Virus record (IMG/VR): IMGVR_UViG_3300011559_000001
Coordinates: 160,001 to 224,000 of that record
Origin: a virus
Taxonomy: Duplodnaviria > Caudoviricetes
DNA length: 64,000 bases
Direction: 5' to 3' (one strand)
Positions 54,617 through 62,917 of this stretch are shown one piece after another (the first letter of the stretch is position 1; each line of letters begins with the position of its first letter). The notes below the pieces were generated by a model. It was not told the DNA's origin and did not search any database. It saw only the letters and a list, made by a program, of their open reading frames with translations. The position numbers and the translations under genes were made by a program.

Positions 54617-55417
54617 TTAGTTGTTGCCGCCCACGATCATCCGAAGCATGCGCTCCTTGGTACGGGTATCGTCCATGTGCATGACCTTCTGGAACACGTC
54701 ACGGAAGTACTCTTTGTACATCTGGTTGGCATCGGAGTAGCTGTCCACCGTTTCACGGAAGACGCCCAGCTCCATACCACCCACCAGCTGACCCATGCCG
54801 ATGCGGATACGGCCCTTGGTGTAGATGTAGGCCTTGATGGCGTATTCCACCAACTGACTGAAGTGCGGCTGGGCCGGACCACTCAGGGTGGAGAACTCAT
54901 CGTCCTGTTCCAGGAAACAACGCAGGAACGAGGCGCGCGGCAAGGACAGGTAGTCACTGACCAACACGGTGTTCTCGGCGATCAACCGGATATAGGCGGT
55001 GGAGACGATCGGGATACCCGCTTGGGCACTCATCAATCCTTGAGCTGCTTCCAGAATCTGGGAGTAGCCTTCCACACCCATGTACGAGGTGTTCATCATC
55101 GTGGACTGGCCGATGGTCAACCCCAGCACGCGCGAGATGCGCCGGTTCTGGGTGAGAGACATCGGAATGCGGTAGACGATCTTGTACATGTCCACCTGTT
55201 CAGGAGTCACCCCATGCAAGGGTAGCTCCACTTGCGTACCGCCTACCAACTTGCAGTCGGGCATCACGCGGGCATCGATGACCTTCTCACGGATCATCGT
55301 GTCCAGCGACACCGGCAGCTGCTGCTGGCCGAATTCACGCTTGAGGAAGATCTCCTGGAGGATCTCTTCAGGAATCTCCCACTTGGCGTCTTGGATTGCT
55401 TTGTCAATTGCACCCAT
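54617..55417 (-). CDS. conserved phiKZ-like (probably virion) protein
   Basis: IPEEILQEIF...AIKAYIY...GGMELG...YSDANQMY; AGGAG RBS and TATGA upstream. Confidence 0.75.
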   Translation of the reverse strand: MGAIDKAIQDAKWEIPEEILQEIFLKREFGQQQLPVSLDTMIREKVIDARVMPDCKLVGGTQVELPLHGVTPEQVDMYKIVYRIPMSLTQNRRISRVLGLTIGQSTMMNTSYMGVEGYSQILEAAQGLMSAQAGIPIVSTAYIRLIAENTVLVSDYLSLPRASFLRCFLEQDDEFSTLSGPAQPHFSQLVEYAIKAYIYTKGRIRIGMGQLVGGMELGVFRETVDSYSDANQMYKEYFRDVFQKVMHMDDTRTKERMLRMIVGGNN

Positions 55418-56106: not shown

Positions 56107-56116
56107 GGGAAACAAC

Positions 56117-57112
56117 ATGTCGCAGAACAACGCCAACCTTCCGCCGCACGGCACCTTCCGTATCTACGGCGCTGGCGGCGCTGGTATCAACATCGTCGGT
56201 GGCTGGAACTCGGTCAACGGTACCAAGCCGGGTCCGGGCACGGGCCTGACCGAGCTGGCCTACATCGACACCTCCCGCTCCAACCTGCCGGCCGGCGTCG
56301 ACCCGGACCTGGTCTTCGTGCTGGAAGGCGTGGACGGTTCGGGTAAGGTGCGCGCTGAGAACCACGTGGAAATCGGCCGCAACATCCGCAACGTCATCCA
56401 GCAGCACGAGCCGGGCGATCTCAACGTGGTGGTGTTCTCCGCCTCCGGCGGCTCCGGCTCGGTCTTCGGTCCGCTGCTGGTGTCTGAGCTGATCGAACGC
56501 GGTCAGCCGGTGCTGGCCATCGTGATCGGTTCGGAAGAATCCAACATCACCGCCAAGAACACCCTCAACACCCTGAAGTCGCTCGAAGCGATCTCCAAGA
56601 AGAAGGGCGTGCCGGTGGTGATGGCCTACCTGCACAACGAGCGCAATGCCAAGCGTTCGGACGTGGACACCCGGGCCCGCTACGTGATGTCGACCCTGGC
56701 CATGCTGGCCAGCCGTCGCAACCACGCTCTGGACACCAAGGACCTGATCCACTTCTTCAACTTCTCCAAGGTCACCTCGGTGGAAGCGCAGCTGGCACTG
56801 CTGCACGTCTACTCCGACCCCAACGAAGTGGACGCTGCGTCCGGCCCGATCGCCATCGCCTCGCTGATGCGTGATCCGGACCAGGTCGGCTACACGATCA
56901 CCCCCGAGTACGAAACCACCGGCTACCCGTCCGAAGCCATCGACACCTTCGACCAGCTGCACTTCGTGATCACCACCGACGGCGTCCAGGGCATCAACAA
57001 GACCCTGAACTCGCGCATCGATGAAGTCACCAAGAACAGCGCCGCCCGCGTCAAGCACGATTCGATCGTGACGGCCAGCGACGCGGTCACCGACGACGGC
57101 CTGGTCCTGTAA
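56117..57112 (+). CDS. phuZ: PhuZ phage tubulin
   Basis: YGAGGAGINI, IDTS, GSGKVR, SASGGSGS, LDTKD, acidic-hydrophobic tail DDGLVL. Confidence 0.95.
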   Translation: MSQNNANLPPHGTFRIYGAGGAGINIVGGWNSVNGTKPGPGTGLTELAYIDTSRSNLPAGVDPDLVFVLEGVDGSGKVRAENHVEIGRNIRNVIQQHEPGDLNVVVFSASGGSGSVFGPLLVSELIERGQPVLAIVIGSEESNITAKNTLNTLKSLEAISKKKGVPVVMAYLHNERNAKRSDVDTRARYVMSTLAMLASRRNHALDTKDLIHFFNFSKVTSVEAQLALLHVYSDPNEVDAASGPIAIASLMRDPDQVGYTITPEYETTGYPSEAIDTFDQLHFVITTDGVQGINKTLNSRIDEVTKNSAARVKHDSIVTASDAVTDDGLVL

Positions 57113-57182
57113 GGACCCCTGACTCCCAGACCCCTGCTTCGGCGGGGGTCTGGAGTCTATGCCTTTTCTCTTGAGGTCCACC

Positions 57183-57383
57183 ATGAACGATCTGTTCGTT
57201 TGCGACAAGTGCAACAACATCGATGCGCTGGAGTTTGCGTACCCCGATGGCTACACCCCCGGTCTTCCCTACGAGTGCACCCAATGTCAAACTGGTCAAT
57301 GGCACGGCCTGCTCCACCAGCGAGCCTACGACCCGGAGAAGGATACGGTAGTGAACCGTCCAACGGGTATCGGGATGAGCTAA
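57183..57383 (+). CDS. small Zn-ribbon protein
   Basis: CDKC...CTQC..GQWH; GAGG RBS. Confidence 0.75.
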   Translation: MNDLFVCDKCNNIDALEFAYPDGYTPGLPYECTQCQTGQWHGLLHQRAYDPEKDTVVNRPTGIGMS

Positions 57384-57841
57384 CGCTCGTCATCCGACAG
57401 AACCCCTACCAAGACCTTTCCGAGTACAGCCAGCAGATCCTCCATGGGTTTGGTGTGGATGGACACTGGCTGTTTACCCTTTTCGTTGATCTGATCCAGA
57501 AGGGTCACGTCGACACCAGCAATACCCGATGGCAGTACGATGGTAGCTTTGCCCGCATGATGCTGGCCGCTGAAGATCTCTTCACCACATGGCTGATCCA
57601 AGCTGCTGAAGGGGAAGGCATGTGCGATGATCAGCTGGCTATCCTCGACGCTGTGGCTGAAGAGGAAGTCCCCACGCTGATTGGCGAGGCTGAACCGATC
57701 CTGTACCAGATGTGCCTGCTCTTGAGCAGCATGTCGCCCCCGCCCGGGATGCAACACCAGCGACTGGACAAGTATCTGGTGGGCTACTCGATGAACGGCC
57801 TGCACGCAGGCTATCTCCACTTCCAGTTCAACGACCTATGA
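57299..57841 (+). CDS. paralogue-array member 1 (start uncertain)
   Basis: LVIRQNPYQDLSEYSQQILHGFGVDGHWLF aligns with member 2. Confidence 0.6.
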   Translation: MARPAPPASLRPGEGYGSEPSNGYRDELTLVIRQNPYQDLSEYSQQILHGFGVDGHWLFTLFVDLIQKGHVDTSNTRWQYDGSFARMMLAAEDLFTTWLIQAAEGEGMCDDQLAILDAVAEEEVPTLIGEAEPILYQMCLLLSSMSPPPGMQHQRLDKYLVGYSMNGLHAGYLHFQFNDL

Positions 57842-58275
57842 AGATCGTCATTCCCTACGCCCCCGAAGAGCTGTTCTCTGACGCAGACCATCATCTGATG
57901 TCCTCGCTGGGGTTGGACCCGATCTTCCTGTTCAACCGAGCACTGGAAGATTGGACGCTCTATTCCTACGGCCAGGCGTGGGATAAATACGAGAACACCG
58001 TGGATTGCATTCACGAACATCTCTACGTGAAATACCAGCACAACCCGCAGCTGTTGGAATCGAGTGAGACCTTGCTCAACGACCGCGCTGACGAAGTCAC
58101 CTTGATGATCGTCCAAGTGGCCGGGTATCTGCACCGGGTCTTACAGGACATCCCTGATGATGTCGTGCGTGAAAGTCTCAACAGCGATGTCTACCACGTC
58201 CTGCGCGTGGAGAAGCTCGATCCCATCGGCCGCTACGGGCAGCTGTTCTCTCAGTCCGAACCCATGTACGCCTGA
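57838..58275 (+). CDS. paralogue-array member 2
   Basis: ATGA overlap; IVIPYAPEELFSDADHHLMSSLGLDPIFLF. Confidence 0.7.
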   Translation: MKIVIPYAPEELFSDADHHLMSSLGLDPIFLFNRALEDWTLYSYGQAWDKYENTVDCIHEHLYVKYQHNPQLLESSETLLNDRADEVTLMIVQVAGYLHRVLQDIPDDVVRESLNSDVYHVLRVEKLDPIGRYGQLFSQSEPMYA

Positions 58276-58417
58276 CCTCGTGTCAGGCGTTATGCTGTCA
58301 AACGCGCTAGAACGCGTTCTGCGCCCCGTACGTTATTAAGTACATACAACCGTAATCTAGTGAGCAGGAAGGCCGCTGTGGCGCTTCTGAGGCCTTTCCT
58401 GAATCGAGTCCATTCCC

Positions 58418-58807
58418 ATGCCCTTCAAGTCCAAGACGTTCAGTAACGGATTCATCTTCACCTTGCTACCCATTCTCGATGACCTCGAACCTGAGGTGAG
58501 TGGCGTGTACAAGGAACTGCACCTGTTGGATTACCCCTTCACCGAAAGTGATGTGGTGACCACTTGGGTCATGTACCAGCTGGAGCGCCACGCCCATCTG
58601 ACGTTGGAGTTCAACGCACAGAAGGAAGCAGCCCAGCTCATCACCTCGCTGACTGATAAGCGGTTTTTCGATAGCCAGATCGCCGCGCGCGATCAGCTGC
58701 TGTCGCAGGTGTTGCCAGCGTTGACTTGTCGAGAGTCAATCCCTTACACCGAACGCATCTGCCGTGTCTGGACCCGCCTTCCGGACCTGCACTTGCAATT
58801 TCTCTGA
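58418..58807 (+). CDS. paralogue-array member 3
   Basis: ends VWTRLPDLHLQF. Confidence 0.65.
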   Translation: MPFKSKTFSNGFIFTLLPILDDLEPEVSGVYKELHLLDYPFTESDVVTTWVMYQLERHAHLTLEFNAQKEAAQLITSLTDKRFFDSQIAARDQLLSQVLPALTCRESIPYTERICRVWTRLPDLHLQFL

Positions 58808-58821
58808 GAGCTGACGTAGCA

Positions 58822-59547
58822 ATGAACAAACTTCCCATCGGCACTGGTCTGTTGCTTCCGGCAGCGGATATGGGTGCTGGCATTCTGGAGCGAATGCAAG
58901 AGTTCGCTGAGCAACCGGGCATGGAGCCTATCAAGGCTGCCTTGGAGTACCGCCCTATTGCCAACGGCAAATGGGTAGGTATCAACCGTGCCTCGATCGC
59001 AGATCTGATCGCTTCGATCTATCTGGACATGCTGCACAACTTCAGCAAGTGGAACAAGGGCGCCACCGAGCAGTACACCCAAGCGCAGTGGATGCGTATG
59101 GTGGAAGGCTGGGAGTCGATCCCGACCAAGATCGAAAACGAGCTGTTCAACAAGGTCATCCGTGACGCCTACGAAGAAATCCACGACACGCTCAACTGGA
59201 TGGATTCTGAGTGCGACGGCTGGAGCATCTGGTACGTGCGCCGCAGTGGCTACGATGTCGTGATCGTGCGGGGTGAAGACTTCCGCATCGCCGACTGGGA
59301 ACGCCGCATGCAGGCTGGTGCGGATTACCTCAAGGCCAAGGAACTGGGTGAGGAACCGCCGTCCCACGCCTGGCTGCCGGACGAAGAAGCGACCCGCTTC
59401 ATCTCGCTGGTGGAATACGAACAGCGCAACGCGGGCCCGCTGGGTAAAACCGCCATCGACGAGTTGGACAAGGAGCGCGCTGAAAGCAAGCGTCAGGCCT
59501 TTGGCAACCGTCGTCGGATGTTCCGTGGTGAGGCACCGAATCTGTGA
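58822..59547 (+). CDS. paralogue-array member 4 with C-terminal extension
   Basis: LLLPAA...YVRRSGYDVVIVR. Confidence 0.7.
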   Translation: MNKLPIGTGLLLPAADMGAGILERMQEFAEQPGMEPIKAALEYRPIANGKWVGINRASIADLIASIYLDMLHNFSKWNKGATEQYTQAQWMRMVEGWESIPTKIENELFNKVIRDAYEEIHDTLNWMDSECDGWSIWYVRRSGYDVVIVRGEDFRIADWERRMQAGADYLKAKELGEEPPSHAWLPDEEATRFISLVEYEQRNAGPLGKTAIDELDKERAESKRQAFGNRRRMFRGEAPNL

Positions 59548-59990
59548 GTCGCGCCGCTCCGGTCCCACGCATTCGCATCATCAGTGGTCGGGCTCTGACG
59601 GAGACCATCCACGGGATCTTGGAGCAGCACATCGGATTTGTCGCCGGGATGATCAATCTGGAGAGCATCGCTGAGTCATTGCTGGAGGAGTTCTTCTTCG
59701 GCCATAGCTTGCGCGATGACTTCGACGATACGATGCGTGGTTTCAGTATCCCAACCGATAAGGTCAGCTACGCACGCACTCGCATCTTGCAGTGTCTGTG
59801 TGAGCAAGTCCACATGGCCTTTGAGGGTATCTGGCCCAGCCGCCACTACAGCTATCAGTTCATCCCGGGTGGTGATCTGATCATCACTGAGACCTCAGCC
59901 GTACCGGTCTTTGGTAGGCTGACTCAATCGACATGGGATGCCCATGAAAGTAATCATCATCGCAATTCGGGACATCTGGATTCGCTTTGA
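59544..59990 (+). CDS. paralogue-array member 5
   Basis: GTGA overlap; RIISGR...YQFIPGGDLIIT. Confidence 0.7.
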   Translation: MSRAAPVPRIRIISGRALTETIHGILEQHIGFVAGMINLESIAESLLEEFFFGHSLRDDFDDTMRGFSIPTDKVSYARTRILQCLCEQVHMAFEGIWPSRHYSYQFIPGGDLIITETSAVPVFGRLTQSTWDAHESNHHRNSGHLDSL

Positions 59991-60423
59991 GGAAGAAAGC
60001 CAAGCTCTGACGCATGCCGGACTGAGTGTGGAAGATGCAGTGAAGATGGCCTTTGGCTACGCAGCGTTGTCTAACCGCCGTCCATGGGGTCGACAAACGG
60101 TGCCGGTGGCCGTGGACATCTTCACTGCCGTGAGGAACCTGTTGATTGACCGCCTGCCCATGGATGATGACCGGCTGCCGTTTACCCGGCAGTCGGGTTA
60201 TGGCGTCAATGACATGCTGGTCTACCGGGTGGTAGACATCATCGGTGAAATCTCACACATGCTGTCCAATGCTGTAATCATGCAACTGGGCCAATTCCCA
60301 GCGAACCTCCAACTGAACAGTTTCACAGGACTGGACTTAGTCCTCCACCTGAACTCCGAGGATTCACGTGTACCTCATCCTTTCGCCCCAAGTCAAACCC
60401 AAAGACCTGAGCGAGCGGGCTGA
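59944..60423 (+). CDS. paralogue-array member 6
   Basis: KVIIIAIR...LNSFTGLDLVLHL. Confidence 0.7.
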   Translation: MKVIIIAIRDIWIRFEEESQALTHAGLSVEDAVKMAFGYAALSNRRPWGRQTVPVAVDIFTAVRNLLIDRLPMDDDRLPFTRQSGYGVNDMLVYRVVDIIGEISHMLSNAVIMQLGQFPANLQLNSFTGLDLVLHLNSEDSRVPHPFAPSQTQRPERAG

Positions 60424-60754
60424 CACGCTGGAGCCGGTGGGTGTTGACTACGCCGACCTGCTCCAACTGACCTTTGACAACTGGCGCCTGATCGATGGGG
60501 CCAGTACCGAAGAACTGCAAGCGATGGTGGAAGGCTACATCAACTCCACTTGGATTTGCCGACGCATGCATGACTACGGTCACATGCAGGAAGTTGCTTC
60601 GGCCATGGCCAGTGCGGTTCAGACGTTCCACGAAGGCTTGCAAAGCCAGCTTGCCCCGTTGCTGGAAAACACCGACTTTGGGTTGGACATCACCGTGCGC
60701 TTGTCGCGCATGATGCACAATGACATTGTCGTCCGCCTGGAGAACACCCTTTAA
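60368..60754 (+). CDS. paralogue-array member 7
   Basis: YLILSP...LSRMMHNDIVVRL. Confidence 0.7.
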   Translation: MYLILSPQVKPKDLSERADTLEPVGVDYADLLQLTFDNWRLIDGASTEELQAMVEGYINSTWICRRMHDYGHMQEVASAMASAVQTFHEGLQSQLAPLLENTDFGLDITVRLSRMMHNDIVVRLENTL

Positions 60755-61365
60755 TGGATACCACCATGGATCGTCGTACGTGGTTCACCATGGTCATGCC
60801 GGGCCGTGAGCTGATCATGGACTTTGAGCCGACCGACAACCTGCTCAAGTCCTTGGGTACCTCGGTCAAAGAAGTGATCGAGATGTTCATCAATACCTGG
60901 GCCGAGTACAAGACTGTGGAATACCACGGCTGGTCCATGTATTCATCCGCTCCTCGTCTCTACGAGCACGACCGTGACCATCCGGCCGTGGTGGAGTTGC
61001 GCCTGCAAGCCCGATGGTTGGTCACTGACATCATCCTTGAAAACGCCTACAAGCGCGTGGAGAAGGGCGAGATCACCAAGATCCGCGACATCGATCTGAA
61101 GGACGCTGAGAAGGTCATGATGTCACTGTGGGCCACTGTGTCTGAGTACATCTTCGCCCTGCTCGATGAACTGCGCGTCACTGACGAACAGATCAGCCAC
61201 CTGCGCTTTGAACGTTGGCTCGGCGATGACTTCATCATCACCCTGCCCCGCATGAGCGGGATTTTTGACGTACGCCGCCAAGAGGAGATGAAACGTGTTG
61301 AGAACCTTCGGGCAGCGTCCCCGCTTTGTAACCACCACGGTCGTGGTTGGTCTGGATCTCACTGA
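60754..61365 (+). CDS. paralogue-array member 8
   Basis: TAATG overlap; TMVMPGRE...RFERWLGDDFIITL. Confidence 0.75.
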   Translation: MDTTMDRRTWFTMVMPGRELIMDFEPTDNLLKSLGTSVKEVIEMFINTWAEYKTVEYHGWSMYSSAPRLYEHDRDHPAVVELRLQARWLVTDIILENAYKRVEKGEITKIRDIDLKDAEKVMMSLWATVSEYIFALLDELRVTDEQISHLRFERWLGDDFIITLPRMSGIFDVRRQEEMKRVENLRAASPLCNHHGRGWSGSH

Positions 61366-61780
61366 GGGGCTGGACGAACATCCCCTCCGGTTGTTCCACC
61401 GGACCTATCCGATCTTGCTGGTGGGCAACTGCCTGTTTGATCTGATGGTCACCTCCAGCGCTGCGGAGTTCTCCGGCGCCGAACTGGCCCAGCACGTGGA
61501 AGAAAGCATCCATCGGATGACCGAGTGTCGACAGAGCCAGATCAACGTCAACGAGGAAGACGGATCAGTCCACGTCAACAACTACTCCCCGCGTTGGGCC
61601 GACGAACAGATCCCAGAGTTCCAGCGCTGGCCGATGCAGAACATCCTGGAAGTGATCTACGATCAGTTCTGCGGTACGATCTGGCCGTTGATCAAGGATG
61701 ACCACCACCTGCGCATGACGACTTCGCTGGTCAACATTCATTGTGACCGTGCCGAGTTCAACCTCTATCGACTCTCGTAA
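61295..61780 (+). CDS. paralogue-array member 9 (divergent)
   Basis: TTVVVGL...LVNIHCDRAEFNL. Confidence 0.6.
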   Translation: MLRTFGQRPRFVTTTVVVGLDLTEGLDEHPLRLFHRTYPILLVGNCLFDLMVTSSAAEFSGAELAQHVEESIHRMTECRQSQINVNEEDGSVHVNNYSPRWADEQIPEFQRWPMQNILEVIYDQFCGTIWPLIKDDHHLRMTTSLVNIHCDRAEFNLYRLS

Positions 61781-61790
61781 GGACACCGTA

Positions 61791-62159
61791 ATGGCTCCCA
61801 AAGTTTTGGTGCTCGATGGCAAGGAGGCCGTCGAGCGTGCGTTCAATTTGATCAACGGTATGGTCGAGCGTCCCAACAACCTGGACACCTTCGGCCGGAC
61901 GATGGTGGATCTGATGGCGTTCCCTGACGCCAGCATCGATCAGATGGCCGACATTCTCCAACCGCTGGTGCAAGCCCACAGACTCGAGGGTGACGACCCC
62001 GGGTTTGACCAACGCATCATGTACGAGGCTGTGACCTACGCTGCTAAGAAGCTGCGTGCGGTCCTGCTGGAACAAGTACCTGACCTCACCCCTCAAGACT
62101 ATCGCTTCCAGCGGTGGTTGGGTCGAGATCTGGTGCTTGAGTTACGCGGTAGTCTATGA
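61791..62159 (+). CDS. paralogue-array member 10
   Basis: KVLVLDGKE...RFQRWLGRDLVLEL. Confidence 0.75.
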   Translation: MAPKVLVLDGKEAVERAFNLINGMVERPNNLDTFGRTMVDLMAFPDASIDQMADILQPLVQAHRLEGDDPGFDQRIMYEAVTYAAKKLRAVLLEQVPDLTPQDYRFQRWLGRDLVLELRGSL

Positions 62160-62186: not shown

Positions 62187-62594
62187 ATGTTGGATCAATC
62201 CAAGATCAAGCTGGAGAGCACGGTTTCCTTTGACCTGTATCCGGCTCATCAACTGCAAGCCAAGGTTACCAACGCCAAGGTGTTGGGTATCTTCACTGCA
62301 GCCACCGCGCAGTCGCTGGGCTTTGATGCCCCGGCCCTGCACGTCAACGTGTACCCCACCCTGCCCCCGGGCACGCCGAACAAGTTCGACCAGTACCTGT
62401 ACATCTACGTCAAGCTGGCCAACGGCGAGAAGACCTTCTATGGTCTGCCGTGGATCAAGGAGACCACCTTCAAGGAAGAGGTGATCCGCACCATCGCCAT
62501 CTACATCGATGCGATCTCCCCGGACCAGCAGAACCTGGCGGTCCAAGCCCTGTCGGCTATCGGCCTGACGGTGGCAAAAGTCGAGGTCCTGTAA
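62187..62594 (+). CDS. conserved phiKZ-like core protein preceding the DNA polymerase (gp49-like)
   Basis: SFDLYP, ALHVNVYPTLPPGTPN, GLPWI. Confidence 0.75.
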   Translation: MLDQSKIKLESTVSFDLYPAHQLQAKVTNAKVLGIFTAATAQSLGFDAPALHVNVYPTLPPGTPNKFDQYLYIYVKLANGEKTFYGLPWIKETTFKEEVIRTIAIYIDAISPDQQNLAVQALSAIGLTVAKVEVL

Positions 62595-62627
62595 GGACCC
62601 CGTATTTTGTTACGGGTTTGCACCTAT

Positions 62628-62850
62628 GTTGTAGACGACACAGGCGGGTGGCGTCTAAACTCCCCGGACTCTCGCCAATCATTGTTATGGTTCTCGATTT
62701 CCCAGACAATGAAAGGCATCACCTTGAGAGGATGGGATAGCGGTGCCAATTGGTGCCGCCACGACCAAATGCGCTCGCACGTTTTGGACTGACGTGCTTG
62801 ATGCGCTGGGAAGTGGGAGAGGGGGCCTCGGAAGAGGCCCCCTTCTTTTT
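62628..62850 (+). ncRNA. candidate multi-branched ncRNA with own TATG start and terminator
   Basis: Five hairpins plus closing helix ctccc/gggag; G-U pairs on + strand; ends in GC hairpin + T tract. Confidence 0.5.
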
Positions 62851-62917
62851 ATGCCGTCGATCTATTTTTCCTTTTTTACGTAGCCGCCGGAAGGTATGAA
62901 CGGTAGAAGGAAATCAG

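Follow-up and report, generated by a model that had tools for sequence, protein, structure and literature searches.

An old array of small paralogous genes between phuZ and the DNA polymerase gene of a nucleus-forming phage, with a possible role in phage-nucleus import

IMG/VR virus record IMGVR_UViG_3300011559_000001 is a complete virus genome of 310,882 bp, of which a stretch of 64,000 nucleotides (nt; positions 160001-224000 of the record), hereafter the window, was analysed. The source is a 311-kb giant nucleus-forming phage of the Chimalliviridae, with Xanthomonas phages RTH11 (PhuZ 66% identical) and LucasX (58%) as closest cultured relatives and all remaining PhuZ matches below 40%. Ten successive plus-strand genes of 122-241 amino acids (aa; g1-g10, Table 1), most of which overlap their neighbours, extend from phuZ to g11, a gp49-like gene next to the gene for DNA polymerase. 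At least seven of the ten make up an old, retained array of paralogues, five being related by sequence, g9 by fold, and g4 and g5 indirectly, and an array of ten paralogues is plausible. By synteny the array corresponds to gp44-gp48 of phiKZ, a set that includes Imp2 and Imp4. An ancient paralogue array acting as a repertoire of adaptors for import into the phage nucleus is the explanation favoured here, with confidence that is about evenly balanced.

Relationships among the array genes

No DNA-level repeats joining the array genes were found (short chance matches only), and pairwise BLASTP among the ten proteins detected a single pair, g8 and g10 (E 0.005, over a C-terminal hairpin). A Pfam scan of the ten gave no match above cut-off, and a PHROG scan nothing usable, with one weak match for g4 (phrog_14023, E 9e-4). 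Comparison of profiles built from orthologues placed array-array pairs in all of the top nine positions among 91, with controls below 2%; here g6 and g8 matched with 76% probability over 138 columns. In a larger all-against-all hhsearch of 138 families from 24 loci, a probability of at least 20% was reached by 48 of 5671 array-array pairs and by none of 3317 array-flank pairs, and g11 showed no link to any array gene. Many of the strongest array-array links are orthologous, between lineages, while the paralogous ones are g6-g8 (91%), g8-g10 (88%), g7-g2 (63%), g8-g2 (41%), g1-g2 (37%, N-terminal and limited to 30 columns) and g5-g10 (27%, spanning 106 columns).

Iterated hhblits searches from g8 merged g6, g7 (aligned over 124 columns), g2, g10 and the copies of one metagenome contig (L007) at full length, with zero flank families, and a MAFFT alignment of the g2, g6, g7, g8 and g10 families is coherent from the first strand through the hairpin. 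The signature of this alignment, in g10 numbering, comprises L6-I/V7-L8-P9, L31, G35, L41, W49 (Ile in g10) and L96, followed by R108-W109-x-G111-x-D113-x-V115 at the C-terminal end. When 1.84 billion proteins were searched with a hidden Markov model (HMM) of the five-family alignment, 89 cluster representatives matched at E<=1e-3. One of these, an apparent fused five-domain form of 777 aa (P0031), was rejected as a tandem-repeat artefact; the other matches are 105-221 aa long and nearly all cover almost the full profile. Nearest relatives lie in the window clade for 77 of the 88 genuine matches, the other 11 matching no fetched locus; array proteins of RP12 were not matched by the HMM. In the source genome the same model found g2, g6, g7, g8 and g10 with E values from 1e-26 to 1e-35, and a deep family profile (106 sequences) matched these five with 98.4-99.8% probability (g2 99.0%, g6 99.6%, g7 99.4%), g4 at a borderline 33% over 132 columns, and no others (g5 8%; g1, g3 and g9 2-3%). 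A deep g9 profile (11 sequences) had no sequence link to the family (2%) or to g3, and a single-sequence search with g10 against a set of 5.8 billion proteins returned only g10 itself. On this profile evidence, g2, g6, g7, g8 and g10 are one homologous family, of which g8 is the hub.

For each of g1-g10, RTH11 has one orthologue at the matching position (1:1), and most of the ten also have orthologues in LucasX and in the viral/metagenome contigs L018 and L005 (g1 in all four). The related loci were retrieved with the gp49-like gene as anchor; a search anchored on PhuZ alone returned nothing. The most widely conserved array gene is g4, with further orthologues in five contigs (L007, L010, L012, L013 and L033) and in phages Eowyn (gp075) and Moabite (gp030). 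The array genes are 29-66% identical to their RTH11 orthologues, versus 66% for PhuZ and 72% for g11, so that all copies have been retained while diverging faster than their neighbours. Because the 1:1 positional orthology extends across the phage clade, the duplications must predate it, and retention of each copy despite faster evolution suggests that the copies are not redundant.

A sequence-only reading of the window had described ten consecutive, mostly overlapping genes between phuZ and the DNA polymerase region as diverged paralogues and, seeing no DNA-level repeat, had taken the expansion to be old and retained. The gene arrangement (all on the plus strand) and the age of the expansion were borne out, and profile searches of the kind that it proposed, together with HMMER, showed five members (g2, g6, g7, g8 and g10) to be homologous. 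Paralogy of all ten is a different matter: g9 joins these five through its fold (see below), the case for g1 is weak, and that for g3 is not established. The second member had been said to fit the shared motif poorly, which is wrong, as g2 fits the family well, and the reported N-terminal alignment of members 1 and 2 was recovered, although it is confined to the short g1-g2 match above.

Predicted fold and structural neighbours

AlphaFold2, given the paralogue alignment as its multiple sequence alignment, produced a confident model of g10 (predicted local distance difference test, pLDDT, 93.5; predicted template modelling score, pTM, 0.85) with a strand at residues 5-8, helices at 11-22, 32-43, 49-62 and 70-95, and strands at 104-110 and 113-118. 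The g9 model (pLDDT 85.2, pTM 0.79; strands 11-19, 144-148 and 152-160, with helices between) repeats this succession of elements, with an additional insert modelled at low confidence. Both models thus predict a common plan in which four helices lie between an N-terminal strand and a C-terminal beta-hairpin, with the RW.G.D motif forming the turn of the hairpin in g10. The sequence-only reading had proposed this architecture and had read the motif as a hairpin; the models of g10 and g9, and for the motif the g10 model and the alignment, agree with it. A single-sequence model of g10 from the ESM Atlas was poor (pLDDT 0.46) and its neighbours were discarded as meaningless; the ESM Atlas gave no usable match for g9.

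The best 50 Foldseek matches in BFVD were taken for each model. For g10 these are small uncharacterised proteins, and all named sources are jumbo phages or uncultured myoviruses (RP12, RP31, RSL2, Ea35-70, Desertfox, Mortimer, PhiEaH1, EL, Noxifer, Psa21, SL2 and Eowyn), several of which yield more than one match, typically with Foldseek probability (prob) 0.9-1.0 and query TM score (TMq) 0.5-0.68. Array proteins of Eowyn, RP12, RP31, RSL2, Ea35-70, PhiEaH1, EL and Noxifer are among the neighbours of g10 (prob 0.87-1.0, TMq 0.5-0.68); all are annotated as hypothetical, and most lack sequence similarity to the window genes. Three Eowyn neighbours sit in the corresponding phuZ-polymerase array: gp075 (A0A7R8MJB9; prob 0.87), the g4 orthologue; gp076 (A0A7R8R5E6; prob 0.97, TMq 0.54), the g5 orthologue (hhsearch 96.6%); and gp081 (A0A7R8R523). 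Matches of g9 are weaker (best E 5e-3) and again come mostly from chimalliviruses, 15 of the 50 being also in the g10 list.

Imp2 orthologues appear in both lists. An SL2 protein in the 90% cluster of phiKZ gp47 (Imp2; A0A2D1GRC6) and Psa21 gp042 (A0A481W4H7), an Imp2 homologue by tblastn, are neighbours of g10 (prob 0.89 for both; TMq 0.51 and 0.44, respectively) and of g9, for which three Imp2 orthologues rank 7, 15 and 27 (prob 0.2-0.35, TMq 0.22-0.30; prob 0.30-0.35 for the SL2 and Psa21 proteins). The g9 list also includes 201phi2-1 gp78 (B3FK53), of the gp46 family. A 129-aa LucasX-type protein, the orthologue of g3 or g7, is a neighbour of both models. Searches of the PDB with Foldseek, VIA-align and sequence found no relative (best Foldseek E 0.11, TM 0.27): likeness of PDB structures to the g10 fold is limited to a generic helical bundle, and weak rows, among them COMMD and spidroin domains, were discarded as helical resemblances of a generic kind.

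Taken with the profile results, the borderline deep-profile match of g4 and the g5-g10 link, each accompanied by a Foldseek match of the Eowyn orthologue, make g4 and g5 probable family members. That at least seven of the ten array genes share the fold is held with high confidence; that all ten do so is somewhat probable. The modelling and structure search proposed in the sequence-only reading thus returned the same plan for g10 and g9 and mainly small chimallivirus proteins as neighbours, and its idea of one fold with variable surfaces finds support in most members.

Counterparts in other chimalliviruses and possible role in import

The order phuZ, array, gp49-like gene, polymerase is kept in phiKZ, PhiPA3, Psa21, 201phi2-1, Eowyn, Moabite, SA002, RP12 and metagenomic contigs. 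Small genes in the array number 11 in Eowyn, 10 in Moabite, ~7 in SA002, ~8 in RP12 and 5-6 in each of PhiPA3, Psa21 and 201phi2-1; in gp49-anchored contigs the interval from phuZ to the gp49-like gene measures 2.2-7.2 kb, and copy number ranges from roughly 5 to 12. In phiKZ the array corresponds to gp44-gp48, located after an inserted gp40-43 block; a phiKZ gp42-type gene lies inside the phuZ-polymerase interval, which has been rearranged or expanded (gp40-43) in the phiKZ lineage. Other genes are seen here as well: two metagenomic chimalliviruses carry a 664-aa NAD-ligase-like gene between phuZ and the array (L012:5692-7686 and L013:5659-7653), and in RP12 a 605-aa gene (gp005; L043:2845-4662, minus strand) occupies an array position.

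Two of the phiKZ array genes have been studied. Import of Nlp1 depends on Imp2, the product of orf47, which itself enters the nucleus via Imp1, and import of TopA depends on Imp4, the product of orf48 (10.1101/2024.03.27.586873); both were proposed to be cargo-specific adaptors and were reported to be conserved only in Pseudomonas phages (10.1101/2024.03.27.586873; restated in 10.64898/2026.09.21.753271), and neither imp2 nor imp4 tolerates transposon insertions (PMC12676376). The source genome encodes homologues of phiKZ Imp1/PicA (genome positions 239566-240942; 28% identity, E 6.6e-35) and of Imp3 (232429-232989; 30% identity, E 4.4e-24), ~10-18 kb downstream of the array and beyond the window. 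No match to Imp2 at E<=10, and none to Imp4, was found in this genome, and tblastn matches to Imp2 are confined to Pseudomonas phages.

Like the window genes, Imp2 (phiKZ gp47, PhiPA3 gp44, Psa21 gp042, 201phi2-1 gp79) is small, is encoded in the array upstream of gp49 and the polymerase (in phiKZ immediately before gp48), and has an N-terminal hydrophobic strand and a C-terminal strand-turn-strand, but it is longer, with an N-terminal extension, has no detectable sequence similarity to them, and reaches TM scores of only 0.2-0.5 against the g10 and g9 models; its function in Nlp1 import has been established only in Pseudomonas phages. Imp4 (phiKZ gp48), like g10, is encoded by the final array gene before gp49 and is of similar length (127 versus 122 aa); its sequence opens with a hydrophobic strand (RVFIVF) and closes with a strand-turn-strand (VLITVPMDTKGLFGVVVLL), but it has no sequence similarity to the window genes and lacks the RW.G.D signature. 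By eye, phiKZ gp44-48 all begin with a hydrophobic strand and end with a strand-turn-strand, and in profile comparison phiKZ gp48 is linked only to PhiPA3 gp45 and 201phi2-1 gp80. From position, and for Imp2 also from twilight-zone fold similarity, we infer homology to Imp2 and Imp4, and it is moderately likely that the window array and Imp2 belong to the same family.

In the favoured explanation, one small alpha/beta domain, with an N-terminal strand and a C-terminal hairpin that would complete a three-stranded sheet beside four helices, was duplicated into a tandem array before the clade diverged. The array may supply a set of adaptors or co-factors, each specific to its own cargo, that serve Imp1/PicA-dependent import into the phage nucleus; variable helical surfaces would bind different cargos, and the conserved strand and hairpin (ILP...RW.G.D.V) would serve as structural core or common docking element. 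An import-adaptor function for the array is tentative, falling somewhat short of an even chance; it is a hypothesis, because it is based on synteny and twilight-zone fold similarity. More tentative again is its extension to every chimallivirus, each of which would carry 5-12 fast-diverging copies of one virus-specific fold, each copy licensing a different cargo, with Imp2 and probably Imp4 as members. The sequence-only reading had listed an adaptor repertoire for phage-nucleus cargo selection among its possibilities, and this part matches the sole experimental data at the syntenic position, those on phiKZ Imp2 and Imp4. Its suggestion of an undescribed system holds only in part: the system is not wholly undescribed, because Imp2 and Imp4 in the same syntenic position have already been studied, but a fold-level family arrayed across the Chimalliviridae appears to be undescribed, no paper being found that treats these genes as one family or beyond Pseudomonas phages.

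Several observations weigh against this explanation. Across the whole source genome the family HMM recovered only its five training genes, missing g1, g3, g4, g5 and g9. Membership of g1, with very little in its favour, is weakly supported, and that of g3 is unproven, its support being limited to a sequence pattern (an N-terminal hydrophobic run and a C-terminal strand-turn-strand). Comparison of the window families with phiKZ gp44-48 gave probabilities below 10% everywhere, and thus no sequence link, and the Foldseek matches to Imp2 orthologues lie in the twilight zone (TM 0.44-0.51 for g10, 0.22-0.30 for g9). The proposed function derives from two distant relatives in another host system, and since Imp2 is itself nuclear, the family could consist of nuclear residents rather than adaptors.

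The array might accordingly be one family only in part, with g3 and perhaps g1 being unrelated ORFans whose terminal patterns arose by chance. The genes missed by the HMM, the shortness of the g1-g2 match and a deep g3 profile (23 sequences) that matched neither the family (1.2%) nor g9 (2.2%) significantly would all fit this. However, g9 is equally invisible by sequence and yet its model has the family plan, both terminal patterns recur in g3, and the LucasX-type protein that neighbours both models may be the g3 orthologue; a partial family is rather unlikely, though it keeps a real chance.

Alternatively, the family could comprise resident phage-nucleus proteins acting in replication or transcription, for instance as accessory or tethering factors of the replisome, which would account for their place beside the DNA polymerase gene, the import phenotypes of Imp2 and Imp4 then being indirect. 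Constant adjacency of the array to the gp49-like gene and DNA polymerase, import of Imp2 into the nucleus, and the absence of transposon insertions in imp2 and imp4, as would be expected of core replication-cycle genes, are in keeping with such a role. No DNA-binding or enzymatic domain was detected in the array genes, however, phiKZ genetics is cargo-specific (Nlp1 needs Imp2, TopA needs Imp4), and the array diverges faster than PhuZ and the gp49-like gene on its flanks, which together make this alternative unlikely.

Gene layout, transcription units and implications

The array interval opens with g0, a gene for a 66-aa protein that lies outside the family and was missed in the gene list of the sequence-only reading, which was otherwise right in counting ten genes. 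It is preceded by a Shine-Dalgarno sequence (GAGG, 6 nt upstream), has homologues at the same position in RTH11, LucasX (LUCX_45) and five contigs (L018, L005, L007, L010 and L011), and is kept in at least 8 related phages or contigs, without annotation in RTH11. The start of g1 is uncertain because g1 overlaps this conserved gene: a start at 57299 falls within g0, and the g1 frame has no canonical start past the g0 stop, leaving either an overlap of ~85 nt or a non-canonical start. The g1 reading frame is open over the g0 3′ end in five related phages. A programmed frameshift fusing g0 to g1 is not claimed, as no slippery site is visible in 57299-57383. Neighbouring genes between g0 and g11 overlap by 1-85 nt (ATGA, GTGA, TAATG or 50-85 nt overlaps) or are separated by gaps of 10-27 nt, the sole exception being the 142-nt gap between g2 and g3. 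A g11-type gene was found immediately upstream of the DNA polymerase gene in every related locus fetched for this position. Just upstream of phuZ, on the opposite strand, lies a 266-aa gene (54617-55417, minus strand); the Eowyn gene annotated ORF042 is likewise upstream and on the opposite strand.

Table 1 Genes and putative transcription signals in the phuZ-polymerase interval (window positions).
Feature	Position	Strand	Length (aa)	Remarks
phuZ	56114-57112			PHROG match phrog_4733, E 4e-97
Signals after phuZ	57103-57161	+		Two hairpins (57103-57117, 57126-57153) after phuZ stop, then TATG 57158; putative terminator and nvRNAP-type promoter opening g0-g2
g0	57183-57383	+	66	CxxC...CxxC, zinc-ribbon-like; outside family; first gene of array
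g1	57299?-57841	+	180	Length if start is 57299
g2	57838-58275	+	145	ATGA overlap with g1
Signals in g2-g3 spacer	58270-58399	+		Hairpin 58270-58288, TATG 58291 (hairpin-TATG site 58270-58295), TAATCTAGTG 58353-58362, hairpin 58367-58399; putative terminator/promoter and 5′ untranslated element opening g3-g11
g3	58418-58807	+	129	
g4	58822-59547	+	241	~70-aa charged C-terminal tail
g5	59544-59990	+	148	GTGA overlap with g4
g6	59938-60423	+	161	
g7	60368-60754	+	128	
g8	60754-61365	+	203	Domain residues ~10-166, then tail overlapping g9
g9	61295-61780	+	161	145 aa in gene call of source
g10	61791-62159	+	122	Minimal domain; reference model of fold
g11	62187-62594	+	135	gp49-like, phrog_3235, E 1.1e-30; not family
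Signals after g11	62585-62628	+		Hairpin over g11 stop, then TATG 62625; putative end of g3-g11
Signals before polymerase	62819-62853			Strong terminator 62819-62844, then TATG at 62850
DNA polymerase	start 62918			

Four sites in this interval combine a GC-rich hairpin with the motif TATG within a few to ~25 bases (Table 1), which in phiKZ is the late promoter consensus of the non-virion RNA polymerase (nvRNAP), with G as +1 (PMC4666361). Three of the four read TATGC; at 62625 TATG is followed by T and lies farther from its hairpin. A further TATG is seen at 62686, between g11 and the polymerase gene, and the stop codons of phuZ and of g11 each lie within a copy of one 17-mer (GGTCCTGTAAGGACCCC). 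In the g2-g3 spacer, TATG 58291 is invariant in five related phages, with stem-forming sequence in the same place before it. The g3 5′ leader (58353-58399) carries the TAATCTAGTG box and a hairpin (GGAAGGCC...GGCCTTTCC), both present in RTH11; the box recurs with small changes in L005, L018 and LucasX, and the hairpin is clear in L005. Host-type promoters were dismissed, since a sigma-70 scan gave fewer sites than shuffled sequences. These motifs point to transcription by the phage polymerase in two units (g0-g2 and g3-g11), and such a split weakens the idea of a single coupled operon.

These signals also bear on two other accounts of the array. It could be a fast-evolving repertoire for host takeover or counter-defence, with one host target per paralogue, as in other multigene families of phages, and no nuclear role, given that the proteins are small, without known domains and evolving rapidly (29-66% versus 66-72% for neighbours), and that copy number and array length vary by lineage. 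Against this, the clade has preserved both gene order and 1:1 orthology, the array is placed among core genes in a conserved core region, its counterparts in phiKZ show an import phenotype and seem to be essential, and the TATG-type motifs point to nvRNAP and thus to middle or late rather than immediate early expression, so that a host-takeover repertoire appears distinctly improbable. Finally, assembly of the paralogues into a hetero-oligomer, for example by edge-to-edge sheet pairing with stoichiometry set by translational coupling, would suit the many junctions that overlap (by 1-71 nt), the small exposed sheet predicted to be made from both chain ends and the joint retention of all copies, but it is very improbable given the conserved hairpin and TATG spacer dividing the array, a copy number that varies among lineages as a fixed complex hardly could, and the separate cargo-specific phenotypes of single phiKZ members. 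This was the machine alternative of the sequence-only reading; neither it nor the stoichiometric coupling and spindle/replisome linkage that the reading also raised gained specific support.

Cargo selection by the protein shell around the phage nucleus is still an open question, and to our knowledge no cargo-specific import factors other than Imp2 and Imp4 have been described. The fold described here has no solved relative, and a confident model of it needed the paralogue alignment, which offers a practical route to other fast-evolving phage ORFans. If Imp2 and Imp4 are members of a fold family that all chimalliviruses carry as an array, they would be part of a family-wide set rather than a speciality of Pseudomonas phages, each genome would list its own candidate adaptors in the phuZ-polymerase interval, and divergence of the array could help to explain how import specificity evolves.

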